A stretch of 32,000 nt of DNA from Bdellovibrionales bacterium (GCA_965247685.1 OZ252021.1:90001-122000); one strand, 5' to 3'. Shown: positions 3,026-32,000, counted from the first letter of the stretch. Translations and numbers: made by a program. The notes: generated by a model not told the origin, from the sequence alone.

Positions 3026-3907
3026 TTATTTTTGTTTCCCTAAATTGTTAGAAGCCAGATATTTTTTGGAGTCTTCGAAGAGAACTTCTAGTCGATTATT
3101 GCGTACAGACAAGATATAACCCCAACCAAATACCTTATGTGCTAGAGGAACTTTTGAAGAATAAATTTTAGAAATATTATAAGACTCTGCAGATTCATCT
3201 TTGAGTTTGTTATGCAAAGCCATCCACCGTTTATGTTCTTCATTTTTTATTTTTTGATCAGCTAACTTCGCTTTTGTTAGCCTCTTTGCTTTTTTAACTT
3301 TTGTGGGTTTTTGAACAGAATCTTGCGATTTCGTTGCTTTTTTCTTTTTCGCTTTCGCAGCTTTTTGAGTGGAAACTTTTGCTTTTAAACTCACTTTAGA
3401 CTTTGCTGGAGTTTTAGTTTTAGATGAACTACGAGTCTTAGATAGACTGACTTTAGTTTTACTTGTTTTTTTAATCTCCTTTTTAGCAGACACACTTGTA
3501 GATGCAGGTGTTTTTTTAACCTGCTTTTTAACAGATACACTTTTAGATACAGGTGTTTTTTTAGCCTGCTTTTTAGCAGATACACTTTTAGATACAGGTG
3601 TTTTTTTAGCCTGCTTTTTAGCAGACACACTTTTAGATACAGGTGTTTTTTTAGCCTGCTTTTTAGCAGACACACTTTTAGATACAGGTGTTTTTTTAGC
3701 CTGCTTTTTAACAGACACACTTTTAGATACAGGTGTTTTTTTAGCCTGCTTTTTAACAGATACACTTTTAGATACAGGTGTTTTTGTAGCCTGCTTTTTA
3801 ACAGATACACTTGTAGATACAGGTGTTTTTTTAGCCTGCTTTTTAGCAGATACACTTTTGGATGCAACTTTAGTTTTATTTGTTTTTTTATTTTTCTTAG
3901 TCGACAC
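3026..3907 (-). CDS. Lys-rich histone-H1-like repeat protein with a small C-terminal HxxFGxGxV (Tudor/DUF3553-like) domain
   Basis: 293-aa ORF. Residues ~22-141 are eight tandem 15-aa units KKQAKKTPVSKSVS(A/V) plus degenerate flanking units. The C-terminus, AHKVFGWGYILSVRNNRLEVLFEDSKKYLASNN, resembles the small C-terminal domain seen on UvrD/PcrA-type helicases. The other two long ORFs over this stretch are alternative frames of the same repeat. Confidence 0.75.
   Translation of the reverse strand: MSTKKNKKTNKTKVASKSVSAKKQAKKTPVSTSVSVKKQATKTPVSKSVSVKKQAKKTPVSKSVSVKKQAKKTPVSKSVSAKKQAKKTPVSKSVSAKKQAKKTPVSKSVSAKKQAKKTPVSKSVSVKKQVKKTPASTSVSAKKEIKKTSKTKVSLSKTRSSSKTKTPAKSKVSLKAKVSTQKAAKAKKKKATKSQDSVQKPTKVKKAKRLTKAKLADQKIKNEEHKRWMALHNKLKDESAESYNISKIYSSKVPLAHKVFGWGYILSVRNNRLEVLFEDSKKYLASNNLGKQK
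3485..3844. repeat. Intragenic tandem repeat, 45-bp period, about 8 copies
   Basis: The unit (plus strand) cctgctttttagcagacacacttttagatacaggtgtttttttag recurs head-to-tail with a few substitutions. It encodes the KKQAKKTPVSKSVSA units of the 3026-3907 CDS. Confidence 0.9.
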
Positions 3908-12654: not shown

Positions 12655-13524
12655 ATGGCCGTCACCTTGAACCTTTTACTCTTCATCTCTCCTTTTAATC
12701 TGGAAATCTTCAATCCTATTATTCAAACGCTCCACGAGTGGTGTCTTTATCGTGTTAATGAGCACACCATGGATCACACAGATATTTACTCTGCCCTCTT
12801 ATGTGGAAAAAGACTGGAAGAAAGATCTATTCGAACTATTTTTACTCAAGTAGGATTGATTCACTTTATGGTCGTCTCAGGAGCTCATTTAATATTTTTA
12901 GAAAGACTATGGAATAAATTTCCTTCATGGCCTTTCAAAAATATTTTGATATTCTTTAGTTTATTAATTTATTCTCTCATGTCGGGACTCAACCCTCCAG
13001 TTCTAAGAGCCTTAATATCTTTTCTCATTCATCGGCTATCTCAAAAAATAAAACTCTCTTGGAACCCTTATTGGAGAGTGATGGTAAGCGGAGTGATCAC
13101 TCTTATACTTAAGCCTCACTGGATCGCTTCTACCAGTTTACAACTCAGCTGGATAGGGAGTCTTGGTTTTGTCACTGCGAGATACTCTACCCTCGTCTCA
13201 TCCTTCCTATGTTACTTTTTTATTTTACCTATTATCAGCCAATGGACAGTGCTTCACCCTTTAAGTATTGGAATGAATTTTATTTTCTTCCCCTTGCTAT
13301 CTATCACTTTATTTCCTTTATCTATTTTTAGTTTTATATTTCCTGTGTTTTTCCCTATAACTTCTTTCTTTTGGTCTTTATGGATTCAATTTTTAAATTC
13401 TCTTCAACCCCTCTTTAAAGCCACATTTTATATCCCCTCTTTATCTGGTTTTAATGTGTGGATTTACATATGTATTATATTTTTTATTCTTCAGGTGTTA
13501 TGGATTTTTACTCGAAGAAGCTAA
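12655..13524 (+). CDS. comEC: ComEC/Rec2-like DNA uptake channel, membrane (competence) domain only
   Basis: 289 aa and polytopic. It contains the ComEC competence-domain block FTQVGLIHFMVVSGAHLIFL. It ends in a different frame from, and overlaps, the next ORF. Confidence 0.7.
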   Translation: MAVTLNLLLFISPFNLEIFNPIIQTLHEWCLYRVNEHTMDHTDIYSALLCGKRLEERSIRTIFTQVGLIHFMVVSGAHLIFLERLWNKFPSWPFKNILIFFSLLIYSLMSGLNPPVLRALISFLIHRLSQKIKLSWNPYWRVMVSGVITLILKPHWIASTSLQLSWIGSLGFVTARYSTLVSSFLCYFFILPIISQWTVLHPLSIGMNFIFFPLLSITLFPLSIFSFIFPVFFPITSFFWSLWIQFLNSLQPLFKATFYIPSLSGFNVWIYICIIFFILQVLWIFTRRS

Positions 13525-14294
13525 AACACTCTATTTGGATAGCAATAATTTTTATTCTTATTGTTTTATCTTTTTTCTCTCCTGAAATAAAACTACAAGG
13601 AGAACATCTCATCGTGTGGAATGTGGGGCAAGGACAAATGGTCACCTACAGCACTCCTCAAGAATGCATACACTTTGACATGGGAGGAGAGAGATTTCCT
13701 AAAAATAAAATCTTTAAAATATGCCACAAAAAACAAAATATTGTGTATTATACTCATTGGGATTTGGATCATATTAATTTTTCTCTTCTTGCTCAAAAAA
13801 TATTTCCATCACTCTGTCGAGCCTTAACTTCTTTAGATACTCCTCAAAAAAAATATAAAAAAAGATGGTTTCAAAAAATACCCCCTTGTCATCAAGATCT
13901 TCCACCCTACATCAAAGAATTAAAAAATATTTACCATCATTCTCAAACATCTAATGAAAAAAGCCGTATCTTTATCATTAAGGATAAAATCCTCATCCCT
14001 GGAGACTCAAATAAGAAAATGGAAAAATATTGGAGTCCTCTAATTCCAAGTTCTATTCAAATACTGATTGCAGGACACCATGGAAGCAAAACATCTTCAT
14101 CTCATCTTTTACTCTCAAAACTTCCTCAACTTCAAATCGGCATTTCCAGTTCAAGAAAAAAAAGATACGGCCATCCTCATTCAAAAACTGTAAGAAGATT
14201 TCATCAAAGAGGAATCTTGTTTATTAGTACCGAAGACTTTCATCATATTCGAATTCCACTCAATCGAAAAAGACTGAAAATTTATTCTTTGTAA
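13458..14294 (+). CDS. comEC: ComEC/Rec2-like C-terminal metallo-beta-lactamase-fold domain (separate ORF)
   Basis: One TM helix is followed by MBL-fold ComEC blocks: VWNVGQGQM..IHFDMGG, YTHWDLDHI, AGHHGSKTSSS and RYGHPH. A more likely start is the ATG at 13500 (MDFYSKK..), which overlaps the previous ORF by 25 nt. Confidence 0.7.
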   Translation: MDLHMYYIFYSSGVMDFYSKKLKHSIWIAIIFILIVLSFFSPEIKLQGEHLIVWNVGQGQMVTYSTPQECIHFDMGGERFPKNKIFKICHKKQNIVYYTHWDLDHINFSLLAQKIFPSLCRALTSLDTPQKKYKKRWFQKIPPCHQDLPPYIKELKNIYHHSQTSNEKSRIFIIKDKILIPGDSNKKMEKYWSPLIPSSIQILIAGHHGSKTSSSHLLLSKLPQLQIGISSSRKKRYGHPHSKTVRRFHQRGILFISTEDFHHIRIPLNRKRLKIYSL

Positions 14295-17988: not shown

Positions 17989-19404
17989 TTAGTAGGATTG
18001 AATTTGCTGAAAAGACTTCAATGTAAATAACAAGGAAAACTCAACATCTTTTAATGTGATATCTTTATGCCCTTCTAGGTCTGCAATCGTTCGAGCAACT
18101 CTTAAAATAGCCGTCTTTCGGCGATAAGAACTTATATACTCTGGTAAAATATTTTTAATAATAAAAGGATCTACTTTTTTTTCAAAATCAGACCAATTTA
18201 AAAGACTGTTAGGAATCTCTTGCCCTCGCTCCTGACGCATGGAAAAAGATTGACTCACCTCCTTCATTATTTCTTCTAAAGAAATAGCGAGAGGTCCTTT
18301 CCAAAAAGAAGATACAGATAAAATATCAAACCGATCGAGCATTGGACCACTTAGTTTCTCCAATCGAGAACGGCATCTTCTTAGTGAGTAAGAACAAGGA
18401 ATGGATTTATCGGGAACATAATACCCACAAGGGCATAAGTTGGTGGCAGCAACAAGAATAAACTGAGCAGGGAAAAACACCCCCTCCCCTCTTCTTGAAA
18501 TACAAATCTCTCTTCTTTCAATAGGCTCACGTAAAGCTTCTTGTACTGCACTTTTAAATTCTAGGTACTCATCTAAAAAAAGTATTCCTCCGTGAGCTTT
18601 AGATACTTCTCCCATAAATGGAGGAAAACCTCCTCCGATCATAGATAGTAAAGGTGTACTATGGTGAGGATACACAAAAGGTCTCCAAGAAGTATCTTTG
18701 CTAAACAAACGAGATATTTTTTTAATCTCTTTAAATAAAGAAAGTGATGGTGGATTCAAAATACATTCCAAACAGCGAGCCAAAGTCGTTTTACCAGAAC
18801 CAGGCTCCCCAGCTAACAATATAGAGTGTTCACCACTTGACACAATTTTTAAAAGCCATGCTGAGTTTTCAGAAAACAAAAGAGAAGGAAGACATGGTCT
18901 TTTGAGGTAAGAAGATAGAGATTGAGCTTTGATTAACTTTGGAGATAAAAGATCACTGAGCGTTTCTACACTATAAACATTATGAAAATTTTCCTGATTT
19001 GTAAGACGGCCGGTAATGAGATGAGATTGATCGATTTGCATCCAATCCATTGGAGCTTCCACATTTCCACTGAGTGCTACTTCACCATAAACAAAGCAGT
19101 CTTCCTTGAACTGCGGAAATTGAACTTGATTAGTTTTATAAAGAAGTGCAACGGCAATAGCTAAGTCTAAACCTTGACTTGTTTTTTTGATATAAGCAGG
19201 ACGCACATTAATATTGACTTGTTTTTTATTAGGCCATTTGAAATTTTGTAATGAGAAAGCTGTTTTCAAACGAGAAACACTTTCTTTAATAGAAGTGTCT
19301 ACAGAGCCCGTAAACTCCACCTTAGGAAGTCCGGGAGTCAAAGAAAGCTCTACCTCACAAGGAATCAGCCGATGACCATCTTGTACATAAGATCGAATAC
19401 GCAT
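17989..19404 (-). CDS. comM: YifB/ComM family Mg-chelatase-like AAA+ ATPase
   Basis: 471 aa with a Lon-protease-like N-terminal domain (GLPKVEFTGSVDTSIKES), Walker A LLAGEPGSGKTT, Walker B GILFLDEYLEF, and LSGPMLDRFD. Confidence 0.88.
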   Translation of the reverse strand: MRIRSYVQDGHRLIPCEVELSLTPGLPKVEFTGSVDTSIKESVSRLKTAFSLQNFKWPNKKQVNINVRPAYIKKTSQGLDLAIAVALLYKTNQVQFPQFKEDCFVYGEVALSGNVEAPMDWMQIDQSHLITGRLTNQENFHNVYSVETLSDLLSPKLIKAQSLSSYLKRPCLPSLLFSENSAWLLKIVSSGEHSILLAGEPGSGKTTLARCLECILNPPSLSLFKEIKKISRLFSKDTSWRPFVYPHHSTPLLSMIGGGFPPFMGEVSKAHGGILFLDEYLEFKSAVQEALREPIERREICISRRGEGVFFPAQFILVAATNLCPCGYYVPDKSIPCSYSLRRCRSRLEKLSGPMLDRFDILSVSSFWKGPLAISLEEIMKEVSQSFSMRQERGQEIPNSLLNWSDFEKKVDPFIIKNILPEYISSYRRKTAILRVARTIADLEGHKDITLKDVEFSLLFTLKSFQQIQSY

Positions 19405-20589: not shown

Positions 20590-21273
20590 ATGAAAAAACT
20601 TTGCTTGCTTATTTTTATTTTATTCAGCTTTAACGCCTTTGCAGAAAAACATTATAGTTGCTTGCACAAAGAAACTGGAACAGGTGTTACTTTTTCTGTG
20701 TCAGACTTTAGTGGCATTCAAGTCGATCACATGGACTTTCCTCCAAAAATCATAAGTTCTTTACAAAAGAGTTATAAAGATCATTTAGATGCAAAAACTC
20801 CGAGTGGATACTATAACATTCAAATCACAGATCAATTGGCACAAGTGAACTATATACAAGATACAGTTTTGACAAGTATAAAATCTCCAACTGGAAAATC
20901 AGTTAAAGAAGGAACAAAAACTTTTGATAAACTTTATAGGGGTGAGCATCAACAAATCGTTCGCTTACATATTATCTGTCCAAGCTTAATAACTTTCAGT
21001 TTAAATCTTAAAACTCACAAGCTCACTGAGACTTCTACTTATTTAGAGCACCCAAGAAAAGGAACTAAAATTTATTTTGATACCAAAAAGAGAAAAAAAT
21101 CAACTGGTCATGTGTATCCTGTAAAAAGAGAACCTATGACGGATCAAGAAGTAAAAAAATATTTTTCAAAATACTCTAATCAACCCATTTACCAAAAGGA
21201 ATACTCGTGTGAATCCATGAATACCTTTAAAGGAAATTTTACTCATTGGATAAAAACGCTGTTCTTTCCATAA
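20590..21273 (+). CDS. Hypothetical secreted protein
   Basis: 227 aa with a clear signal peptide, MKKLCLLIFILFSFNAFA/EK. I recognise no family. Confidence 0.6.
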   Translation: MKKLCLLIFILFSFNAFAEKHYSCLHKETGTGVTFSVSDFSGIQVDHMDFPPKIISSLQKSYKDHLDAKTPSGYYNIQITDQLAQVNYIQDTVLTSIKSPTGKSVKEGTKTFDKLYRGEHQQIVRLHIICPSLITFSLNLKTHKLTETSTYLEHPRKGTKIYFDTKKRKKSTGHVYPVKREPMTDQEVKKYFSKYSNQPIYQKEYSCESMNTFKGNFTHWIKTLFFP

Positions 21274-21325: not shown

Positions 21326-21448
21326 CTTACGCCCATGGAAGATAGAGACCTAGCTGTCTCACGATGTTCTGAACCCAGCTCGTGTGCCTCTTTATTTAGC
21401 AAACAACCAAACCCTTGGGACATGCTTCAGCCCCAGGATGGGATGAGC
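21320..21448 (-). pseudogene. Isolated fragment of 23S rRNA domain V (about E. coli 2509-2630; helices ~90-93 including the A-loop)
   Basis: The minus strand reads GCTCATCCCATCCTGGGGCTGAAGCATGTCCCAAGGGTTTGGTTGTTTGCTAAATAAAGAGGCACACGAGCTGGGTTCAGAACATCGTGAGACAGCTAGGTCTCTATCTTCCATGGGCGTAAGAAGG. It is colinear with the conserved 23S stretch GGCUCAUCACAUCCUGGGGCUGAAG...GAGCUGGGUUUAGAACGUCGUGAGACAGUUCGGUCCCUAUCUGCCGUGGGCG. No other rRNA sequence lies on either side. Confidence 0.8.
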
Positions 21449-21470
21449 TTGTAGTTAAAGAATTTCAGTC

Positions 21471-23933
21471 TCATTTCAAAAGCTGAATGAATTTCTCACG
21501 ATATTCACCATTAGTGTTCTTCTTTGCAAAATCAAGAGCCATATGACCATATTTATTTTTAGAATTTTTATTAGCTCCACTCTCTACCAAGTACTCCGCG
21601 ATGTCTAGATTTCCTTTCCCTGCTGCGTACATGAGTGCTGTATAACCATTTATATTTGTGGCATCTATATCAGCTCCCCGAGCCAGCAAAAAATCCACAA
21701 ATTCTCGATCCCCTTCCTCTGCTGCTTGAATGAGAGCTGTCTCACCCCATCTATTTTTGGCATCTATATCAGCTCCTCTAGCCAGCAAAAAATCCACAAA
21801 TTCTCGATCCCCTTTCTTTGCTGCGTACATGAGGGCTGTCTCACTAAAAAAACTTCTAGCATTTATATCTAATAATATCTTAAATTTAGAATTTAAAACC
21901 TCCTCTATCTGCTGTTCGTTTTCAGAAAAAAATACTTGAGAAATCTGCCTTATAAACTCTCTCTTATAAGATACTCTTACATCTTTCCAATTACTCATCT
22001 CTCCTATAATAATTTTCTGCTCTTTTTCTGAAAAGAATTCTAACTGAGTAGATAAAAAATCTAAATCTACATCGACTCTCTTTCCTAGCTCTAAATTGAT
22101 TCTCTTTTTTAGCTCCCATTGAATTAAAGTAAATAAAGTCAACTTTCTGACTCTAGAATCAATATCTTGACCCTCTATTTTGTCCTTTAAATAACTTTTA
22201 ACATATTCTGAAGTGATATTGAGTCCTTCGATTTCTTTTAAGGATAACAAGTTATTTAAAAACTTTATCTGATCCTCTGTCTCATTGGATTTTCCTAACG
22301 AAAGTACAGGTTCATATAAACCTCTAACACTTAATTCTTCAGACGCTGTTTGTGGAATATATATTTCACCCGGTCTAATCGTAATATTATCCAGTCCCCT
22401 GCCTTCTCCCTCTAACACCAACATATCTAATCCCTTATCAGCTCTTGAATACTCTTTTGAATATCTATTTTCAAATTGGTATTCATTAGGATGAGGTTGG
22501 AACTTTCTTAAACGAACTTTTAACTGAGGTAAAATCTTCTCCTTAAGATAGCCCCTTGTTATATCATCATTGGAGATGCCATCATGATCTCCTACATTTT
22601 TAGGGAGACCTAGTTTATATCCTAATTCCTTTAAACTCAGTCTTATACCTTCTAGTGTAGGAAGAAGTAAATGATTGGGAAAGTCTTGTATCTTATCAAC
22701 AAAAGCTACCTGCTCCTTTTCTCCTCTTTCATTTTCAGCAGAACCCAAGACTACTGCAATATGCCCTGAAGATTTATAATTCTCACCTGTCAAAGTAAAA
22801 TAAAGATAATTAGGATCTAAAGCTTTCTCAAAATAATATTCCGTCGCGCAATCTCCACTCAAACAGGATCTAAATGGGGACTCTTGTATGGATAAGCTTC
22901 TCAATCGAAGAGTTTTCCTATAACCTTCCTTATTGGGCTGATTTTTTATATCATCTTCTATTCTTAGCAGTTGTGTAGAAACATCTTCATTAGGTTTAAC
23001 ATTTAAGGATTCTCTTAACTCAGAAAAATGCCCTTCAAATCCTAACTCAATCGCTATAACATTTCTTTCTGATAAAATTTTACGAACAGCATCTATTCTC
23101 TCTATTGGATTTTTACTTTTCAAAGAAGCCTCATAAAGAGGATTTCCAAAACCTGCTGTATCCACTAAATCCACCATAGCTTGTGATATGTATCGAACAT
23201 CTCTTTTATCTGCCAATAACTGATCTCTTGCTTCATTTAAAATCTTATAGAATCCTATGATTTTTTCCCTATAAGGAATGGAAGAGTTTTCTATAAATTT
23301 CAAATTTTCTTCGCTGATGAATTTCTTAAAATAATCTTTAAAACCTTCCATTTGTTTTTGTTTAAACTGTTTTCGTTCTTCTCTGTTTAAATTGGAAGAT
23401 GGTGGAGATTTTTGAACATCAAGTATTTTATGCCAAAATCCAATATTGGCTTCTATTTGAAATAAATTATTTCTTCGCCTCTTAGATGATTTTTTAAAGT
23501 TTTGGATAAATTGAATCAAACTTTGAGATTGTTCATATTCTTTAATAGAAATTTCCAGAATCTGCTCTCGAAGAGATGGCTTAGAAAGTTCAGGATATTT
23601 TTCTAAAATTTGAAACAGAAGAGTAAAATTGTTGTCTTTATCTATTTTTTCATTAAAATTTCCAAACCAATTTTTTAAATATAATTTCAATAAATCTTTC
23701 TGTTCCTTTCCAAGCAATAAGCCTTTAGTCATCGCTTCTGCAAAGGTTGTTGGAATCTCAGGGTTTGTATAAGCTCTTACTGGTTGTCCAGAAAAGATTT
23801 TGTTCCTAAAAAGCTTTCTACATAGGTCTTTTGTGTAGGTTTGAGAAGGCAGTATAAGCAAAACCATCATAGAAACGTAGAAGACTCTTTTATATCTGTA
23901 CTGAAAACTACTTTTTAATCCTTTAAATATCAT
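21471..23933 (-). CDS. Array gene A: signal-anchor + conserved unknown module + ~4 ankyrin repeats
   Basis: 820 aa, starting MIFKGLKSSFQYRYKRVFYVSMMVLLIL. The ankyrin consensus (..TALM.AA..G....V.FLL..GADI.) occupies the last ~133 aa (nt ~21474-21872). GAGGA lies 9 nt upstream of the ATG. Confidence 0.85.
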   Translation of the reverse strand: MIFKGLKSSFQYRYKRVFYVSMMVLLILPSQTYTKDLCRKLFRNKIFSGQPVRAYTNPEIPTTFAEAMTKGLLLGKEQKDLLKLYLKNWFGNFNEKIDKDNNFTLLFQILEKYPELSKPSLREQILEISIKEYEQSQSLIQFIQNFKKSSKRRRNNLFQIEANIGFWHKILDVQKSPPSSNLNREERKQFKQKQMEGFKDYFKKFISEENLKFIENSSIPYREKIIGFYKILNEARDQLLADKRDVRYISQAMVDLVDTAGFGNPLYEASLKSKNPIERIDAVRKILSERNVIAIELGFEGHFSELRESLNVKPNEDVSTQLLRIEDDIKNQPNKEGYRKTLRLRSLSIQESPFRSCLSGDCATEYYFEKALDPNYLYFTLTGENYKSSGHIAVVLGSAENERGEKEQVAFVDKIQDFPNHLLLPTLEGIRLSLKELGYKLGLPKNVGDHDGISNDDITRGYLKEKILPQLKVRLRKFQPHPNEYQFENRYSKEYSRADKGLDMLVLEGEGRGLDNITIRPGEIYIPQTASEELSVRGLYEPVLSLGKSNETEDQIKFLNNLLSLKEIEGLNITSEYVKSYLKDKIEGQDIDSRVRKLTLFTLIQWELKKRINLELGKRVDVDLDFLSTQLEFFSEKEQKIIIGEMSNWKDVRVSYKREFIRQISQVFFSENEQQIEEVLNSKFKILLDINARSFFSETALMYAAKKGDREFVDFLLARGADIDAKNRWGETALIQAAEEGDREFVDFLLARGADIDATNINGYTALMYAAGKGNLDIAEYLVESGANKNSKNKYGHMALDFAKKNTNGEYREKFIQLLK

Positions 23934-24224
23934 CCCATTAAATCCTCTAATGCATTATAAAAGGTTTTTATAATTGTTAAATATCACTCCAATTAACTCC
24001 TGTTAGAGACGAGCTATATGAAAAAAACTACTTTTATTTATGTAAAGATAAACTATCACGATGCACTGAAAATATCCATCAAACAAGAGTGAAGTGTGTA
24101 ATTTTTACACTTACCTTAGAATACTCATCCCACTCGCCTAAGTTGGTTTACGGTACAGGCAACATTAAAAACGTACTGTTTAGTTTTATTTTGTTGAATT
24201 ACCATTGGATGAGCCTAAAGAGTC
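23934..24224. repeat. Conserved inter-paralogue leader/spacer, copy 1 (upstream of gene A)
   Basis: It is alignable over its whole length with 27024-27311 and 30144-30465. On the minus strand it contains an RBS (23943-23947) and a TATAAT box (23954-23959). Confidence 0.85.
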
Positions 24225-27023
24225 TCATCTCAAGAGCCGAATGAGTTTCTTAAGATGTTTCCTATTAGCGTTCATCTTTGCAATATCAAGAGCCGTCTCA
24301 CCATTTTTATTTTTAGGATTTTTATTAACTCCACTCTTTACCAATAACTCCACGATTTCTAGATTCCCATGCCTTACTGCTTCCATGAGGACTGTAACAC
24401 CATATATATCTGTGACATCTATATTAGCTCCATTCTCCAACAATAACTCCACGAGTTTTGGATTCTTCCCTATCCCTGCTGCGTGCATGAGGGCCCGATT
24501 ATCATTAATTATGGAATTTCGACTAACTCCTCTATCCAGCAAGAACTGCACGAGTTTTGGATTCCCAGACATCACTGCGACCGTGAGAGTCGAAGAACCA
24601 TATTCATCTTTGAAATCCATATCAGCTCCTCTATTCAGCAAGAACTTCACGAAGTCTAGATCCCCTTTCCTTGCTGCTTCCATCAGAGCCGTGCTAGTAG
24701 CTGTAACATTTGTATCAGCTACAACATTTATATCAGCTCCTCTATCCAGCAAAAAATCCACAAATTCTCGATCGTCTCTCTTTGTTGCTTCAATGAGTGC
24801 TGTCCAACCAGATTTATTTTTGGCATTTATATCCAATAATATCTTAAATCTGGAATTTAAAGCCTTTTCTATTTTCTGTTTGTTTTCAGAAAACAATACT
24901 TGAGAAACCTGCCGTATAAACTCTCTCTTATAAGATACTCTTACATCTTTCCAATTACTCATCTCTCCTATAATAAATTTCTGCTCTTTTTCTGAAAATA
25001 ATTCTAACTGAGTAGATAAAAACTCTAAATCCAAACTGATTCTCTTTTTTAACTCCCATTGAATTAAAGTAAATAAAGCCAACTTTCTGACTTTAAAATC
25101 AATATCTTTACCCTTTATCTTATCACTTAAATAAGTTTCAACATATTCTGAAGTGATATTGAGTTCTTCGATTTCTTTTAAAACTAACAAGTTTTTTAAA
25201 AAATTTATCTGATCTTCTGCATTATTGGATTTTTCTAACAAAAATACGGGTTCAGATAAACCTCTAACACTTAATGCTTTAGACGCTGTTTGTGGAATAT
25301 ATATTTCACCTGGTCTAATCGTAATATTATCCAGTCTCCTGTCTTCTCCTCCTAACACCAACATATCTAATCCCTTATCAGCTCTTGAACGCTCTTTTGA
25401 ATACTCATTTTCAAATGGGTATTCATTAGGATAAGGTTGAAACTTTCTTAAACGAACTTTTAACCGAGGTAAAATCTTCTCCTCAAAATAGCTCCTTGTT
25501 ATACCATTATTGGAGATACCAGTATCAGAATCTCCTACATCTTTAGGAAGACCTAGTTTATATCCTAATTCCTTTAAACTCAGTCTTATACCTTCTAGTG
25601 TAGGAAGAATTAAATCATTGGGAATTTCTTGTATTTTATCAACAAAAGCTACCTGTACCTTTTCTCCTCTTTCATTTTCAGCAGAACCCAAGACTACTGC
25701 AATATGCCCTGAAGACTTAGAATCCTCATCTGTCAAAGTAAAATAAAGATAATTAGGATCTAAAGCTTTCTTAAAATAAGATGCCGTCGCACAATCTCCA
25801 CTCAAACAGGATCTAAATGGGGACTCTTGTATGGATAAGCTTCTCAATCGAAGAGTTTTCTTATAACCTTCCTTATTGGGCTGATTTTTTATATCATCTT
25901 CTATTCTTAGCAGTTGTGTAGAAACATCTTCATTAGGTTTAACATTTAAGGATTCTCTTAACTCAGTAAATTGCCCTTCAAATCCTAACTCAATCGATAT
26001 AATATTTCTTTCTGATAAAATTTTACGAACAGCATCTATTTTCTCTATTGGATTCTTACTTTTTAAAGCTTTCTCATAAAGAGGATTTCCAAAACCTGCT
26101 GCATCTACTAAATCCACCATAGCTTGTGATATGTATCGAACTTCTTTTTTATCAATCAATAACTGATCTCTTGCTTCATTTAAAATAGTATAGAATCCTA
26201 TGATTTTTTCCCTATAAAGAATGGAAGAGTTTTCTATAAATTTCAAATTTTCTTCGCTGATGAATTTCTTAAAATAATCTTTAAAACTTTCCAATTGTTC
26301 TTCTCTGTTTAAATTGGAAGATAATGAAGCTTTTTGAAAATCAAATATTTTATGCCAAAATCCAATATTGGCTTCTATTTGAAATAAATTATTTCTTCGC
26401 TTCTTAGATGACTTTTTAAAGCTTTGGATAAATTGAATCAAACTTCGAGATGGTTCATATTCTTTAATAGAAATTTCCATAATCTGATCTCGAAGAGGTG
26501 GTTTAGAAAGTTCAGGATATTTTTTGAAAACTTGAAACAGAAGAGTGAATTCTTTGTCTTTATCTATTTTTTCACTAAAATCTCCAAACCAATTGTTTAT
26601 ATATAATTTCAATAAATCTGCCTCCTCCTCTCTAGATAATAAGCCTTGAGTCATCGCTTTTACAAAGGCTTCTGGAGTCTTAGGATTTGTCTCAACTCTA
26701 AGACCTTTTGTCATCTCTTCTGCAAAGGCTGTTGGAATCTCAGGCTTTACCTCAGCTCTAAGACCCTTTGTCATCGCTTCTGCAAAGGCTGTTGAAATCT
26801 CAGGTTTTACCTCAACCCTTACTACTTCTGAAGAAGGCTGACTTTTTAGATCTTTTCTTACTGGTTGTCCAGAAAAGACTTTATTTCTAATATTAATAAA
26901 AAGCTTTCCACATAGGTCTTTTGTGTAGGTTTGAAAAGGCAGTACAAGCAAAACCACCATAGAAACGTAGAAGACTCTTTTATATCTGTACTGAAAACTA
27001 CTTTTTAATCCTTTAAATATCAT
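24225..27023 (-). CDS. Array gene B: signal-anchor + conserved unknown module (with 3x20-aa insert) + ~6 ankyrin repeats
   Basis: 932 aa with the same N-terminus and module as A. The ankyrin tail is the last ~203 aa (nt ~24228-24836). This is the most divergent copy. Confidence 0.85.
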   Translation of the reverse strand: MIFKGLKSSFQYRYKRVFYVSMVVLLVLPFQTYTKDLCGKLFINIRNKVFSGQPVRKDLKSQPSSEVVRVEVKPEISTAFAEAMTKGLRAEVKPEIPTAFAEEMTKGLRVETNPKTPEAFVKAMTQGLLSREEEADLLKLYINNWFGDFSEKIDKDKEFTLLFQVFKKYPELSKPPLRDQIMEISIKEYEPSRSLIQFIQSFKKSSKKRRNNLFQIEANIGFWHKIFDFQKASLSSNLNREEQLESFKDYFKKFISEENLKFIENSSILYREKIIGFYTILNEARDQLLIDKKEVRYISQAMVDLVDAAGFGNPLYEKALKSKNPIEKIDAVRKILSERNIISIELGFEGQFTELRESLNVKPNEDVSTQLLRIEDDIKNQPNKEGYKKTLRLRSLSIQESPFRSCLSGDCATASYFKKALDPNYLYFTLTDEDSKSSGHIAVVLGSAENERGEKVQVAFVDKIQEIPNDLILPTLEGIRLSLKELGYKLGLPKDVGDSDTGISNNGITRSYFEEKILPRLKVRLRKFQPYPNEYPFENEYSKERSRADKGLDMLVLGGEDRRLDNITIRPGEIYIPQTASKALSVRGLSEPVFLLEKSNNAEDQINFLKNLLVLKEIEELNITSEYVETYLSDKIKGKDIDFKVRKLALFTLIQWELKKRISLDLEFLSTQLELFSEKEQKFIIGEMSNWKDVRVSYKREFIRQVSQVLFSENKQKIEKALNSRFKILLDINAKNKSGWTALIEATKRDDREFVDFLLDRGADINVVADTNVTATSTALMEAARKGDLDFVKFLLNRGADMDFKDEYGSSTLTVAVMSGNPKLVQFLLDRGVSRNSIINDNRALMHAAGIGKNPKLVELLLENGANIDVTDIYGVTVLMEAVRHGNLEIVELLVKSGVNKNPKNKNGETALDIAKMNANRKHLKKLIRLLR
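26641..26820. repeat. In-frame 60-bp tandem repeat, 3 copies, inside gene B
   Basis: 26641-26700, 26701-26760 and 26761-26820 align in register. They encode (E)VKPEI(S/P)TAFAE(A/E)MTKGLR x3. Genes A and C have a single unit. Confidence 0.9.
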
Positions 27024-27311
27024 CCCATTAAATCCTCTAATGCGTTATTAAATATAAAAGGTTTTTATATTTGTTAAATGTCATTTCAATTAACTCCTGT
27101 TAGTGACGAGCTATATGAAAAAAAACTATTGTCATTGATATAAAGATAAACTATCACGATGCACTGAAAATATCCATCAAACAGGAGTGAAGTGTGTAAT
27201 TTTTACACTCACCCGAGTTGATTTACGGTACAGGTGATATTGAAAATATACTGTTTAGTTTAGTTTTCTTTTGTTGAATTTTTAATTACCATTGGATGAG
27301 TCTAAAGAGTC
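27024..27311. repeat. Conserved inter-paralogue leader/spacer, copy 2 (upstream of gene B)
   Basis: Homologous to 23934-24224, with small indels. Confidence 0.85.
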
Positions 27312-30143
27312 TCATCTCAAGAGCCGAATGAGCTCCTCACGACGATGTTCATTATTAATTTTAACGCTCTTCTCTGCAAAATCAAGAGCCGTCAACCCAT
27401 CTTTATTTGTGGCATCTTTATTAGCTCCTCTCTCCAACAAGAGTCTCACGATTTCTAGATACCCTTTCTCTACTGCTATCATGAGGGCTGTATCACCATC
27501 TTCATTTTTGCCATCTTTTTTAGCTCCACTCTCCAACAAGAGTCTCACGATTTCTGGATGCCCATGCCTTGCTGCATATATGAGGACTGTATCACCAAAT
27601 CCATCTTTGGCATTGACATCAGCTCCACTCTCCAACAAGAGCTTCACAAGTTTTAAATTCCCAATTATTGCTGCATGACTGAGGGCTGTAGAACCAAATC
27701 TATTTTTGGCATCTTTTTTAGCTCCATTATTCAGCAAGAACTTCACGATTTTTAGATCCCCTCCCTCTACTGCAAACATAAGGACCGTAGTACCACCTGC
27801 ATTTTTGTTATTTAGATCAGCTCCACTCTCCAACAAGAATCTCACGATTTCTAGATCCCCTTTCCTTGCTGCTTCCATAAGAGCCGTGCCAGTAAATCCA
27901 GTTACAACATTTAGATCAGCTGCAACATTTAGATCAGCTGCAACATTTAGATCAACTACAACATTTAGATCAGCTCCACTCTCCACCAAGAGCTTCATAA
28001 GTTTTAAATTCCCAATTATTGCTGCATACACAAGAACTGGAACACCATGTGAATTTATGGTATTTACATCTAATAATATCTTAAATCTGGAATTTAAAGC
28101 CTTTTCTATTTTCTGTTTGTTATAAGAAAAAAATACTTGAGAAATCTGCCTTATAAACTCTCTCTTATAAAATACTCTTACATCTTTCCAATTACTCATC
28201 TCTCCTATAATAACTTGTTGCTCTTTTTTTGAAAATAATTCTAACTGAGTAGATAAAAAATCTAAATCTACATCGACTCTCTTTCTTAGCTCTAAATTGA
28301 TTCTCTTTTTTATCTCCCATTGAATTAAAGTAAATAAAGCCAACTTTCTGACTCTAGAATCAATATCTTGACCCTCTATTTTGTCCTTTAAATAATTTTT
28401 AACATATTCTGAAGTGATATTGAGTTTTTCGATTTCTTTTAAGGATAACAAGTTATTTAAAAACTTTATCTGATCCTCTGCATTATTGGATTTTTCTAAC
28501 GAAAGTACGTGTTTATATAAACCTTTAACACTTAATGCTTTAGACGCTGTTTGTGGAATATATATTTCACCCGGTCTAATCGTAATATTATCCAGTCTCC
28601 TGCCTTCTCCCTCTAACACCAACATATCTAATCCCTGATCAGCTCTTGAATACCTATTTTTAAATGGGTATTCATTAGGATGAGGTTGAAACTTTATTAA
28701 ATGAACATTTAACCGAGGTAAAATCTGCTCCTCAATATATCCACTTGTTATACCATTATTGGAGATACCATTAAGATCCCCTACATCTTTAGGAAGACCT
28801 AATTTATATCCTAATTCCTCTAAACTCAGTCTTATACCTTCTAGTGTAGGAAGAAGTAAATGATTGGGAAAGTCTTGTATCTTATCAACAAAAGCTACCT
28901 GCTCCTTTTCTCCTCTTTCATTTTCAGCAGAACCCAAGACTACTGCAATATGCCCTGAAGATTTATAATTCTCACCTGTCAAAGTAAAATAAAGATAATT
29001 AGGATCTAAAGCTTTCTCAAAATAATATTCCGTCGCGCAATCTCCACTCAAACAGGATCTAAATGGGGACTCTTGTATGGATAAGCTTCTCAATCGAAGA
29101 GTTTTCCTATAACCTTCCTTATAGGGCTGATTTTCTATATCATTTTCTATTCTTAGCAGTTGTGTAGAAACATCTCCATTAGATTTAACATTTAAGGATT
29201 CTCTTAACTCAGTAAATTGCCCTTCAAATCCTAACTCAATCGCTATAGCATTTCTTTCTGATATAATTTTACGAACAGCATCTATTCTCTCTATTGGATT
29301 TTTACTTTTCAAAGAAGCCTCATAAAGAGGATTTCCAAAACCTGCTGTATCCACTAAATCCACCATAGCTTGTGATATGTATCGAACATCTCTTTTATCT
29401 GCCAATAACTTATCTCTTGCTTGTTTTAAAATCTTATAGAATCCTATAACTTTTTCCCTATAAGGAGTGGAAGAGTTTTCTATAAATTTCAAATTTTCTT
29501 CATTGATGAATTTATTAAAATAATTTTTAAAATCTTCCACTTGTTTTTGTTTCCACTCTTTTCGTTTTTGCCCTTTTAAATTGGAAGATGGTGGAGCTTC
29601 TTGAAAATCAAGTATTTTATGCCAAAATCCAATATTGGCTTCTATTTGAAATAAATTATTTCTTCGCCTCTTAGATGATTTTTTAAAGTTTTGGATAAAT
29701 TGAATCAAACTTTGAGATTGTTCATATTCTTTAATAGAAATTTCCAGAATCTGCTCTCGAAGAGATGGTTTAGAAAGTTCAGGATATTTTTCTAAAATTT
29801 GAAACAGAAGAGTGAAATATTTGTCTTTATTTATTTTTTCATTAAAATCTCCAAACCAATTTTTTAAATATAATTCCAATAAATCTGCTTGTTTCTCTCC
29901 AAGAAATAAACCTTGAGTCATCGCTTCTGCAAAGGCTCTTGGAGTCTTAGGTTTTGTCTTAGATTTTGTATCAGCTCTTACTGATTGTCCAGAAAAGACT
30001 TTATTTCTAATATTGATAAAAAGCTTTCTACATAGGTCTTTTGTGTAGGTTTGAGAAGGCAGTATAAACAAAACCACCATAGAAATGTAGAAGACTCTTT
30101 TATATCTGTACTGAAAACTACTTTTTAATCCTTTAAATATCAT
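27312..30143 (-). CDS. Array gene C: signal-anchor + conserved unknown module + ~7 ankyrin repeats
   Basis: 943 aa. The N-terminal two thirds are nearly identical to A. The ankyrin tail is the last ~253 aa (nt ~27315-28073). Confidence 0.85.
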   Translation of the reverse strand: MIFKGLKSSFQYRYKRVFYISMVVLFILPSQTYTKDLCRKLFINIRNKVFSGQSVRADTKSKTKPKTPRAFAEAMTQGLFLGEKQADLLELYLKNWFGDFNEKINKDKYFTLLFQILEKYPELSKPSLREQILEISIKEYEQSQSLIQFIQNFKKSSKRRRNNLFQIEANIGFWHKILDFQEAPPSSNLKGQKRKEWKQKQVEDFKNYFNKFINEENLKFIENSSTPYREKVIGFYKILKQARDKLLADKRDVRYISQAMVDLVDTAGFGNPLYEASLKSKNPIERIDAVRKIISERNAIAIELGFEGQFTELRESLNVKSNGDVSTQLLRIENDIENQPYKEGYRKTLRLRSLSIQESPFRSCLSGDCATEYYFEKALDPNYLYFTLTGENYKSSGHIAVVLGSAENERGEKEQVAFVDKIQDFPNHLLLPTLEGIRLSLEELGYKLGLPKDVGDLNGISNNGITSGYIEEQILPRLNVHLIKFQPHPNEYPFKNRYSRADQGLDMLVLEGEGRRLDNITIRPGEIYIPQTASKALSVKGLYKHVLSLEKSNNAEDQIKFLNNLLSLKEIEKLNITSEYVKNYLKDKIEGQDIDSRVRKLALFTLIQWEIKKRINLELRKRVDVDLDFLSTQLELFSKKEQQVIIGEMSNWKDVRVFYKREFIRQISQVFFSYNKQKIEKALNSRFKILLDVNTINSHGVPVLVYAAIIGNLKLMKLLVESGADLNVVVDLNVAADLNVAADLNVVTGFTGTALMEAARKGDLEIVRFLLESGADLNNKNAGGTTVLMFAVEGGDLKIVKFLLNNGAKKDAKNRFGSTALSHAAIIGNLKLVKLLLESGADVNAKDGFGDTVLIYAARHGHPEIVRLLLESGAKKDGKNEDGDTALMIAVEKGYLEIVRLLLERGANKDATNKDGLTALDFAEKSVKINNEHRREELIRLLR
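27906..27977. repeat. In-frame 18-bp tandem repeat, 4 copies, inside the ankyrin tail of gene C
   Basis: aacatttagatcagctgc x4 (27906-23, 27924-41, 27942-59, 27960-77) encodes ADLNVV-VDLNVA-ADLNVA-ADLNVV. Confidence 0.9.
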
Positions 30144-30465
30144 CCCATTAAATCCTCTAATGCATTATTAAATATAAAAGGTTTTTATAATTGTTAAATG
30201 TCATTCCAATTAACTCCTGTTAGAGACGAGCTATATGAAAAAAAACTACTTTTATTTATGTAAAGATAAACTATCACGATGCACTGAAAATATCCATCAA
30301 ACAAGAGTGAAGTGTGTAATTTTTACACTTACCTTAGAATACTCATCCCACTCGCCTAAGTTGGTTTACGGTACAGGCAACATTAAAAACGTACTGTTTA
30401 GTTTAGTTTTCTTTTGTTGAATTTTTCATTACCATTAGATGAGCTATGGTTAAAGAATTTCAGTC
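30144..30465. repeat. Conserved inter-paralogue leader/spacer, copy 3 (upstream of gene C)
   Basis: Homologous to 23934-24224 and 27024-27311. Confidence 0.85.
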
Positions 30466-32000
30466 TCATTTCAAAAGCTGAATGAATTTCTCACGATATT
30501 CACCATTAGTGTTCTTCTTTGCAAAATCAAGAGCCATATGACCATATTTATTTTTAGAATTTTTATTAGCTCCACTCTCTACCAATAACTCTACGATTTT
30601 TAGATACCCATGCCTTGCTGCATACATGAGGGCTGTCTGACCATTTTTACTTTTGGCATTTTTATTAGCTCCACTCTCCACCAATAACTCCGCGATGTCT
30701 AGATTTCCTTTCCCTGCTGCGTACATGAGTGCTGTATAACCATTTATATTTGTGGCATCTATATCAGCTCCCCGAGCCAGCAAAAAATCCACAAATTCTC
30801 GATCCCCTTCCTCTGCTGCTTGAATGAGAGCTGTCTCACCCCATCTATTTTTGGCATCTATATCAGCTCCTCTAGCCAGCAAAAAATCCACAAATTCTCG
30901 ATCCCCTTTCTTTGCTGCGTACATGAGGGCTGTCTCACTAAAAGAACTTCTAGCATTTATATCCAATAATATCTTAAATTTAGAATTTAAAACCTCCTCT
31001 ATCTGCTGTTCGTTTTCAGAAAAAAATACTTGAGAAATCTGCCTTATAAACTCTCTCTTATAAAATACTCTTACATCTTTCCAATTACTCATCTCTCCTA
31101 TAATAACTTGTTGCTCTTTTTTTGAAAATAATTCTAACTGAGTAGATAAAAAATCTAAATCTACATCGACTCTCTTTCCTAGCTCTAAATTGATTCTCTT
31201 TTTTAGCTCCCATTGAATTAAAGTAAATAAAGTCAACTTTCTGACTCTAGAATCAATATCTTGACCCTCTATTTTGTCCTTTAAATAACTTTTAACATAT
31301 TCTGAAGTGATATTGAGTCCTTCGATTTCTTTTAAGGATAACAAGTTATTTAAAAACTTTATCTGATCCTCTGTCTCATTGGATTTTCCTAACGAAAGTA
31401 CAGGTTCATATAAACCTCTAACACTTAATTCTTCAGACGCTGTTTGTGGAATATATATTTCACCCGGTCTAATCGTAATATTATCCAGTCCCCTGCCTTC
31501 TTCCTCTAGCACCAACATATCTAATCCCTGATCAGCTCTTGAATACTCATCTGAATACTCATTTTCAAATGGGTATTCATTAGGATGAGGTTGAAACTTT
31601 CTTAAACGAACTTTTAACTGAGGTAAAATCTTCTCCTTAAGATAGCCCCTTGTTATATCATCATTAGAGATGTCATTATGATCTCCTACATTTTTAGGGA
31701 GACCTAGTTTATATCCTAATTCCTTTAAACTCAGTCTTATACCTTCTAGTGTAGGAAGAAGTAAATGATTGGGAAAGTCTTGTATCTTATCAACAAAAGC
31801 TACCTGCTCCTTTTCTCCTCTTTCATTTTCAGCAGAACCCAAGACTACTGCAATATGCCCTGAAGATTTATAATTCTCACCTGTCAAAGTAAAATAAAGA
31901 TAATTAGGATCTAAAGCTTTCTCAAAATAATATTCCGTCGCGCAATCTCCACTCAAACAGGATCTAAATGGGGACTCTTGTATGGATAAGCTTCTCAATC
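30466..32000 (-). CDS. Array gene D (5' end beyond the window): conserved unknown module + ~5 ankyrin repeats
   Basis: The open frame reaches the window edge. The M at 31998 in the ORF track is a TTG (Leu in the paralogues: ..LRLRSLSIQ), so the gene is truncated by the window. The 3' ~100 nt and the downstream flank are identical to gene A. Confidence 0.85.
   Translation of the reverse strand, partial: LRSLSIQESPFRSCLSGDCATEYYFEKALDPNYLYFTLTGENYKSSGHIAVVLGSAENERGEKEQVAFVDKIQDFPNHLLLPTLEGIRLSLKELGYKLGLPKNVGDHNDISNDDITRGYLKEKILPQLKVRLRKFQPHPNEYPFENEYSDEYSRADQGLDMLVLEEEGRGLDNITIRPGEIYIPQTASEELSVRGLYEPVLSLGKSNETEDQIKFLNNLLSLKEIEGLNITSEYVKSYLKDKIEGQDIDSRVRKLTLFTLIQWELKKRINLELGKRVDVDLDFLSTQLELFSKKEQQVIIGEMSNWKDVRVFYKREFIRQISQVFFSENEQQIEEVLNSKFKILLDINARSSFSETALMYAAKKGDREFVDFLLARGADIDAKNRWGETALIQAAEEGDREFVDFLLARGADIDATNINGYTALMYAAGKGNLDIAELLVESGANKNAKSKNGQTALMYAARHGYLKIVELLVESGANKNSKNKYGHMALDFAKKNTNGEYREKFIQLLK

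Follow-up and report, generated by a model that had tools for sequence, protein, structure and literature searches.

A tandem gene array in a Bdellovibrionales bacterium that joins a conserved module with a predicted GNAT-like core to variable ankyrin tails

What are four closely related large genes doing side by side in a bacterial genome when the long module that they share belongs to no described domain family and their ends are ankyrin repeats of differing number? This arrangement lies in a 32,000-nt stretch of DNA from a Bdellovibrionales bacterium (GCA_965247685.1 OZ252021.1:90001-122000; "the window" means this whole stretch), in which four minus-strand paralogues of 820, 932, 943, and at least 510 visible aa run in tandem from 21471 to the window edge. 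A preliminary description of the locus, made from the sequence alone, had reported four consecutive minus-strand open reading frames (ORFs), the last one cut by the window edge, and had described them as near-identical copies with 4, 6, 7, and 5 ankyrin repeats. Our ORF calls give the same boundaries, the repeat numbers agree exactly when the C-terminal cap is counted, and protein identity to copy 1 is 78% for copy 2, 81% for copy 3, and 97% for copy 4. The answer that we prefer, with about even confidence, is that these are exported proteins in which a GNAT-like module (GNAT, Gcn5-related N-acetyltransferase or acyl-CoA N-acyltransferase) supplies a constant acyl-transfer or ligand-binding function and a variable tail picks the target, which would make the array a recombining collection of specificities. 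The architecture, the export signal, the family distribution, the fold resemblance, the recombination, and the link to diversity-generating retroelements (DGRs) are the parts of this reading that have direct support. The genes and the unit upstream of copy 1 are as follows.

21471..23933, minus strand: copy 1, 820 aa, with a signal peptide, the ~650-aa module, and 4 ankyrin repeats; identical to database protein P0001
24225..27023, minus strand: copy 2, 932 aa, the most divergent copy, with 6 ankyrin repeats and a 20-aa N-terminal motif present three times; identical to P0002
27312..30143, minus strand: copy 3, 943 aa, with 7 ankyrin repeats
30466..32000, minus strand: copy 4, 510 aa visible, with 5 ankyrin repeats, a copy-3-like N-terminus, and a copy-1-like rest
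23934..24224, minus strand: upstream intergenic unit of copy 1, ~90% identical to 27024-27311 and 30144-30465

The array and its predicted export

In the source genome, copy 4 is present in full as the 860-aa protein P0231, whose end would fall near window coordinate 33048; the apparent TTG start at 31998 is therefore a window-edge artefact. The ~290-bp upstream regions of copies 1 to 3 share ~90% identity, and each has a GAGGA Shine-Dalgarno sequence at its end. Because the coding regions and these upstream regions are both conserved, we conclude that whole gene-plus-promoter units were duplicated. The array does not have the makeup of a polymorphic toxin with an immunity gene, since its variable part is a binding repeat and the ~290-bp spacers contain no credible small ORF; the spacers also have no significant RNA structure (folding z-score, -0.4). 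The promoter and terminator scan was uninformative, with 52 promoter-like sites versus 41.5 expected.

The N-terminus had been described as a hydrophobic signal-anchor, and this is not borne out. A hydrophobic core is present in 154 of the 163 family members with complete N-termini (~94%), and the median uncharged run is 13 residues, which is too short for a membrane anchor and favors a cleavable-type Sec signal peptide. A small-x-small site follows the hydrophobic core in 146 of these members, and in 158 a cysteine follows shortly after the core (C38 in copy 1, which is invariant across an 80-sequence alignment). Judged by these sequence features, the array proteins are most likely cleaved and exported via Sec. 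The possibility that the N-terminal cysteine marks a lipoprotein was rejected, as it lies 2 to 6 residues past an AxA-type site or after a proline and there is no lipobox. The signal peptide regions are the following.

23829..23933, minus strand: signal peptide region of copy 1 (aa 1 to 35), followed by the family-invariant Cys38
26919-27023, minus strand: signal peptide region of copy 2, equivalent to copy 1 aa 1 to 35
30039-30143, minus strand: signal peptide region of copy 3, equivalent to copy 1 aa 1 to 35

The conserved module and its predicted fold

The first ~690 residues, which include the module, have no Pfam match even at an E value of ≤1. Searched as single sequences or as profiles, the proteins match Pfam, NCBIfam, PDB, PADLOC, and PHROGs only through their ankyrin or FGE parts, and a PDB profile search with the module is empty. 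The module does have many relatives of its own. By itself it retrieves at least 221 proteins, with 35 to 45% identity outside the source genome, and a profile search of 1.84 billion cluster representatives gives 305 matches at an E value of ≤1e-30 and 592 at ≤1e-10, which is a family of at least 305 clusters at 50% identity. Scanning one genome per species, we found 70 loci, all from Bdellovibrionota (Bdellovibrionales, Pseudobdellovibrionaceae, Bacteriovoracaceae, and Oligoflexia) except for two contigs of metagenome-assembled genomes (MAGs). These two, L040 and L069, are labelled Nitrosovibrio and Pseudomonadota, and the DGR cassette of the Bdellovibrionota loci recurs in L069; the two contigs probably reflect mis-binning rather than transfer. 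A query with copy 4 found no relative in the JGI metagenome scan.

Most family genomes have several module copies, and tandem arrays of 2 to 5 copies occur at ~12 other loci. In two Pseudobdellovibrionaceae MAGs, for example, there are five copies within 20 kb (L013:1-19480) and three head-to-tail copies (L018:2677-13297), with stop and start codons overlapping between some of the copies. The source databases label family members by their tails only, as "ankyrin repeat protein" or "SUMF1/EgtB/PvdO family enzyme," and as a result the conserved 650-residue module has gone unnoticed. Our literature searches returned no description of it. We conclude that the module is an undescribed domain family and that its full architecture, which runs from a signal peptide through a helical domain, the GNAT-like core, and a second helical domain to ankyrin repeats, in some members with a DGR-targeted lectin domain as well, is absent from the libraries and papers that could be searched; what is known already is the GNAT fold, DGR targets, and the principle of a multigene family that combines a constant part with diversifying binders.

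Predicted structure gives a different result from sequence. An AlphaFold2 model of copy 1 residues 36 to 690, built with 80 homologues, has a predicted local distance difference test score (pLDDT) of 89.9 and a predicted TM-score of 0.86, and a separate model of the domain at residues 318 to 535 has a pLDDT of 86.5. When the full module model is compared with the PDB by Foldseek, the matches are weak, and they are consistently GNAT-fold acetyltransferases. For the domain model, the top 50 matches are all GNAT-fold proteins, nearly all of them acyl- or acetyltransferases (E values of 8e-4 to 2e-2; probability mostly 0.8 to 1.0; TMt, the TM-score normalized to the target, mostly 0.4 to 0.55), and they include AAC(6'), SpeG, the GmvT/TacT/KacT toxins, NatD, and Gcn5. 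Acetyltransferases and N-myristoyltransferases were also matched in the viral structure library BFVD. The order of elements in the AlphaFold2 models, b1-a1/a2-b2-b3-b4-a3-b5-a4-b6, is GNAT topology. The preliminary description had called the module unassignable, which holds for sequence in all five libraries; at the level of predicted structure, its centre appears to be a divergent GNAT fold. The hidden Markov model and AlphaFold/Foldseek searches which that description had proposed thus return no profile match and a modest but consistent structural one. We infer that the module holds a divergent GNAT-like core, superfamily membership being based on the predicted structure, and, more cautiously, that it may have acyltransferase activity. 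The core spans ~190 residues in the centre of the module and is located as follows.

22350..22934, minus strand: GNAT-fold-like core of copy 1 (aa 334 to 528), with motifs RSLSIQESPFRSCLSGDC, LDPNYLYFTLT, and VAFVDKIQ
25290..25877, minus strand: GNAT-fold-like core of copy 2 (aa 383 to 578)
28551..29123, minus strand: GNAT-fold-like core of copy 3 (aa 341 to 531)
31444..31998, minus strand: GNAT-fold-like core of copy 4 as far as it lies within the window

The 80-sequence alignment has 22 invariant residues, and 17 of them fall in the GNAT-like core (in copy 1 numbering, R345, L347, E351, P353, R355, C362, F368, Y378, T380, T382, S388, L396, G397, D413, K414, Q416, and F478). Y439, also in the core, is nearly invariant in this alignment and fully invariant in a 45-sequence alignment. 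In the predicted model, D413, K414, and Q416 close strand b4, and Y439 is on b5. The catalytic residues of classical GNATs sit at the end of b4 and in the b5 region, so these conserved residues are where GNAT active sites lie. The strand and helix order is shared with the GNAT enzymes, among them AAC(6'), SpeG, and the tRNA-acetylating toxins GmvT/TacT/AtaT, and these are the only consistent fold match in the PDB and BFVD. In contrast to these enzymes, the module has its most conserved motif, QESPFRSCLGGDC, in a1-a2, which is a variable region of classical GNATs, and its core is embedded in ~450 flanking residues (N- and C-terminal helical domains with the motifs NLFQIEANxGFW and ISQAMVDLVxTxGFGN) that match nothing, in a protein that is predicted to be exported.

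Several observations weigh against a constant acyl-transfer function. The Foldseek scores for the GNAT resemblance are modest. Unlike the GNAT enzymes, the module has no sequence-profile similarity to the superfamily: none of the GNAT family models (Pfam Acetyltransf_* and NCBIfam) is matched at an E value of ≤1 by the window copies or at ≤5 by 45 family members. The motif A loop between b4 and a3, Q/R-x-x-G-x-G/A, is also absent, and with it the canonical glycine motif that binds coenzyme A (CoA); at this position the family consensus is AFVDKIQNVPxxxI and the window copies have VAFVDKIQDFPNHL (copy 2, ...QEIPNDL), with no glycine. Finally, there is no acyl-CoA outside the cytoplasm, and because an acyl donor is needed, the exported protein would have to act inside another cell.

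The missing CoA-binding motif and the lack of acyl-CoA outside the cytoplasm both favor an alternative that we consider rather doubtful, namely, that the proteins only bind, as receptors or adhesins that are secreted or displayed on the surface and recognize prey or host, with the module as a noncatalytic stalk or pseudoenzyme. It is also favored by the observation that DGR targets with FGE/C-type-lectin domains, which are found in a sister subfamily described below, are typically ligand-binding proteins (PMC5758913), and by the chimeric fibre protein families that Bdellovibrio uses for prey recognition (PMC10769870). The mosaic adhesive trimer fibres of B. bacteriovorus come from the same phylum and are likewise a multigene family with a conserved part and diverse C-terminal binding tips (PMC10769870). 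However, the array proteins are unrelated to these fibres in sequence and fold and are predicted to be globular, with a GNAT-like core. The invariants of the core are mostly polar (R, E, C, D, K, Q, Y, T, and S), which is more like a ligand-binding or catalytic site than a stalk, and the core is the least-changed segment between paralogues that are otherwise diverging rapidly. Moreover, no repeat, fibre-like, or anchoring domain (lipobox, beta-barrel, sortase, or PEP-CTERM) is seen. We continue to prefer the reading in which the module itself transfers an acyl group or binds a ligand.

Diversification by recombination and by retroelements

From approximately residue 690 on, Pfam finds ankyrin repeats, and nothing else, in the copies (Ank_2 E values of 1e-36 to 2e-70 across all four). 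The DNA period of the repeats is 99 nt, which is 33 residues, and their number differs from copy to copy.

21474..21866, minus strand: ankyrin tail of copy 1, 3 full repeats and a C-terminal cap; repeats 1 and 2 are near-identical internal duplicates
24228..24830, minus strand: ankyrin tail of copy 2, 6 repeats
27315..28067, minus strand: ankyrin tail of copy 3, 7 repeats, with an 18-nt "ADLNVA" micro-repeat (x3.9) in an ankyrin loop at 27905-27975
30469..30960, minus strand: ankyrin tail of copy 4, 5 repeats, equal to the copy 1 tail plus one in-register repeat
26650..26816, minus strand: 60-nt tandem repeat (x2.8) in copy 2, which triplicates the N-terminal motif "P..P.AFAEAMTKGL"

The near-identical duplication of repeats 1 and 2 is found in copy 4 as well as in copy 1. 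Over 16 ankyrin repeats, variability is highest at the canonical target-contact positions; this is the general ankyrin pattern, so it is weak evidence for target diversification. A 232-aa ORF with a TTG start lies antisense to the copy 2 tail (24205-24903, plus strand) and is almost certainly a by-product of the codon structure of the repeats.

The copies themselves have recombined. When the sites that distinguish copy 1 from copy 3 are followed along the complete copy 4, there are ~30 consecutive copy-3-type sites (with one exception), then copy-1-type sites, and later a short copy-3 patch. Such a clean mosaic demonstrates that unequal crossing-over and gene conversion have occurred. Copy 2 lacks a 24-nt duplication. 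Between copies, the module has a synonymous divergence (dS) of 0.03 to 0.12 and a ratio of nonsynonymous to synonymous divergence (dN/dS) of 0.6 to 1.2. The ankyrin tails are far more divergent (dS, 0.25 to 0.47; dN, 0.33 to 0.37), except for the near-identical pair of copies 1 and 4.

Since repeats are difficult to assemble and dN/dS is ~1, it could be argued that the copies are an assembly artefact or decaying, functionless pseudogene duplicates. We consider this highly improbable. The copies differ by 3 to 22% in protein, their indels and repeat numbers are distinct, and the mosaic breakpoint is clean, all of which is unlike the mis-assembly of collapsed repeats, and three of the four proteins have been independently recorded from a single 1.28-Mb contig. 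All of the ORFs of 820 to 943 aa are intact with conserved ribosome-binding sites, tandem arrays recur in unrelated assemblies, and the family is conserved across long distances (35 to 45% identity). The suggestion in the preliminary description that a constant module is coupled to a diversifying tail is instead strengthened by the mosaic recombination, the dN/dS of ~1, the gain and loss of ankyrin repeats, the arrays elsewhere, and the DGRs of a sister subfamily.

In this sister subfamily, diversity is generated by a different route. The C-terminal partner of the module among 40 longer family members is an FGE-sulfatase domain (C-type-lectin fold) in 20 and ankyrin repeats in 15, and the order in the three FGE-type proteins that were scanned (P0092, P0102, and P0116), the DGR-targeted one among them, is module, 2 to 3 ankyrin repeats, and FGE. 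At five loci from different MAGs, an HRDC-like ORF, an Avd-like ORF, and a reverse transcriptase (RT) gene come after the module gene. These complete DGR cassettes, each comprising the HRDC-like ORF, Avd, RT, and a template repeat (TR) and targeting the FGE domain, are located as follows.

L014:12812-15325: DGR cassette
L019:7619-10063: DGR cassette
L020:12793-15303: DGR cassette
L043:9640-14611: DGR cassette; copies resembling the variable repeat (VR) are present in two adjacent genes
L069:2378-4962: DGR cassette

At L014, L019, and L020, the module gene carries at its 3' end a 125-nt repeat that pairs with a copy just past the RT gene, and mismatches between TR and VR fall at adenines of the RT-proximal copy in 16 of 16, 14 of 15, and 17 of 19 cases, respectively. 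This adenine-specific pattern is the defining DGR signature, and the FGE domain is a verified DGR target in the sister subfamily. These members resemble the DGR variable proteins of the Treponema TvpA type (category b; Wu et al. 2018, PMC5758913) in that the VR is at the 3' end of FGE, HRDC, Avd, and RT genes adjoin, and the TR/VR differences are adenine specific. According to the same survey, FGE-type targets are the largest class of DGR targets, and some of them are extended at the N-terminus by sequence whose function is unknown (PMC5758913). The ~650-aa module with its ankyrin spacer is not among the appended domains described there, and the text mentions neither Bdellovibrio nor ankyrin. 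In contrast to TvpA-type proteins, the four copies of the array lack an FGE domain, and their diversity comes from duplication and recombination. No RT or Avd (tblastn) and no TR-like sequence (blastn) is found in the window, and the four copies are not DGR targets within it. Nothing supports the reading of a constant function and a variable target more strongly than this coupling of the same module, in different lineages, to two routes to binding diversity.

A second protein accompanies the module in the FGE-type subfamily. This ~600-aa signal peptide protein adjoins the module gene (L066:12730-14544, L027:4418-6229, L017:8094-9923, L035:13024-14790, L022:2982-5219, and six more loci) and is absent from the window. 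At several of these loci, the stop codon of one gene overlaps the start codon of the other. It has a weak but recurrent Pfam match to FhuF (IucA/IucC C-terminal) in 9 of 10 members (best E value, 6e-6) and a motif, "SFEAHTQNM," which suggests a second cofactor-dependent enzyme-like protein. The idea that it is a divergent paralogue of the module was rejected (hhalign probability, 0.03).

Which cells the array proteins would act on depends in part on the lineage. The window has ~34% GC, the closest named relatives of its TopA are all from Bdellovibrionales or Pseudobdellovibrionaceae (53 to 55% identity), TopA relatives at 80 to 84% identity sit on contigs of 1.1 to 1.4 Mb, and the array proteins in the database trace to a single contig of 1,280,446 bp. 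By these sequence comparisons, the source is a small-genome, AT-rich Bdellovibrionales lineage, and the contig sizes and GC content are consistent with a host-dependent lifestyle. This, the 4 to 7 ankyrin repeats per copy, and the fact that the copies have really diversified would suit ankyrin effectors that act on eukaryotic host proteins, with the array widening the range of eukaryotic targets of a host-associated bacterium. The ankyrin effectors of Legionella, Coxiella, Wolbachia, and Rickettsia are likewise multicopy, with variable repeat numbers and small AT-rich genomes. However, those effectors rely on type IV or type I systems for delivery and have no Sec signal peptide, whereas the array proteins have a predicted ordinary Sec signal, with no recognizable effector-translocation signal, and come from a predator phylum. 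Bdellovibrionota, to which the family is essentially confined, are known mainly for preying on bacteria. Short ankyrin segments are present also in the environmental FGE/DGR-type members P0092, P0102, and P0116, and the window contains no eukaryote-like domain or type III/IV secretion context. Nothing specific points to a eukaryotic host, and we regard this explanation as unlikely; the target could equally be bacterial prey.

Under the reading that we prefer, the array would be a locally amplified repertoire of one Bdellovibrionota-specific, Sec-exported, multidomain family. Helical domains would flank a divergent GNAT-fold core that holds most of the invariant polar residues, the activity of the module would most likely be acyl-group transfer or the binding of an acyl-CoA-like ligand at a GNAT-type site, and the ankyrin tail would select the target. 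New specificities would appear when copies are duplicated in tandem, cross over unequally, undergo gene conversion with one another, or gain or lose ankyrin repeats; in the sister subfamily, this role would fall to DGRs that hypermutate the C-type-lectin/FGE domain after the module. That the proteins act as enzymes, that they reach another cell, and what they target, bacterial prey or a eukaryotic host, are the elements that we infer. Only tentatively do we go further and propose exported GNAT-like "programmable" effectors, in which one catalytic module is retargeted to new molecules of prey or host by three interchangeable routes: DGR lectin hypermutation, ankyrin shuffling, and tandem amplification with gene conversion.

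If this is true, the range of prey or hosts open to predatory or parasitic bacteria would depend in part on this family. How such Bdellovibrionota recognize and disable their victims is largely unexplained, and the module family is a concrete candidate for studies of prey or host specificity: a large, phylum-restricted, exported, multicopy family with at least two independent mechanisms of diversification has the signature expected at a host/prey interface. With it, the catalogue of DGR targets gains a new N-terminal partner, and the GNAT fold gains a variant that has an unusual conserved motif rich in cysteine.

Flanking genes

The preliminary description had called the DNA beside the array otherwise plain housekeeping DNA, which is not purely so. 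Positions 1-21300 hold ordinary genes, with topA and ftsH confirmed by NCBIfam and metG, htpX, ruvCAB, efp, a ComM-like ATPase, and others read from translations. The exceptions lie close to copy 1, in the downstream flank of the array, where there are a 23S rRNA fragment and, near it, a tRNA-Gly. The fragment is an isolated 100-nt piece (21351-21451, minus strand) located 20 nt downstream of the copy 1 stop codon and corresponds to positions 2533-2632 of the Rfam large-subunit rRNA model (69.9 bits; E value, 8e-19). We take it to span the region with the classical homing-endonuclease target CGTGAGACAG. No rRNA operon accompanies it in the window, and it is outside the repeated unit and present in none of the 70 related loci.

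Two other features stand farther from the array. The 293-aa lysine-rich protein at 3026-3907 (minus strand) consists in part of ~11 tandem copies of a ~15-aa unit, KSVSxKKQAKKTPVS, has no Pfam match, and resembles histone-H1-like or chlamydial Hc2-like nucleoid proteins. The overlapping ORFs at 12655-13524 and 13458-14294 (both plus strand) look, from translation, like ComEC-type membrane and metallo-beta-lactamase parts (motif HWDLDH), and this pair could be a frameshift or a split gene.

Two neighbors of the array have homologues beside module genes elsewhere. The 227-aa signal peptide protein next to the array (20590-21273, plus strand) has a weak homologue at L008:12624-13253 (24% identity; E value, 2e-9), which is directly downstream of the single module gene of that locus, and the ComM-like gene (17989-19404, minus strand) has a 46% homologue at L011:19742-21160, near a module gene. 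These shared neighbors are a hint that the array expanded in place from one ancestral copy.

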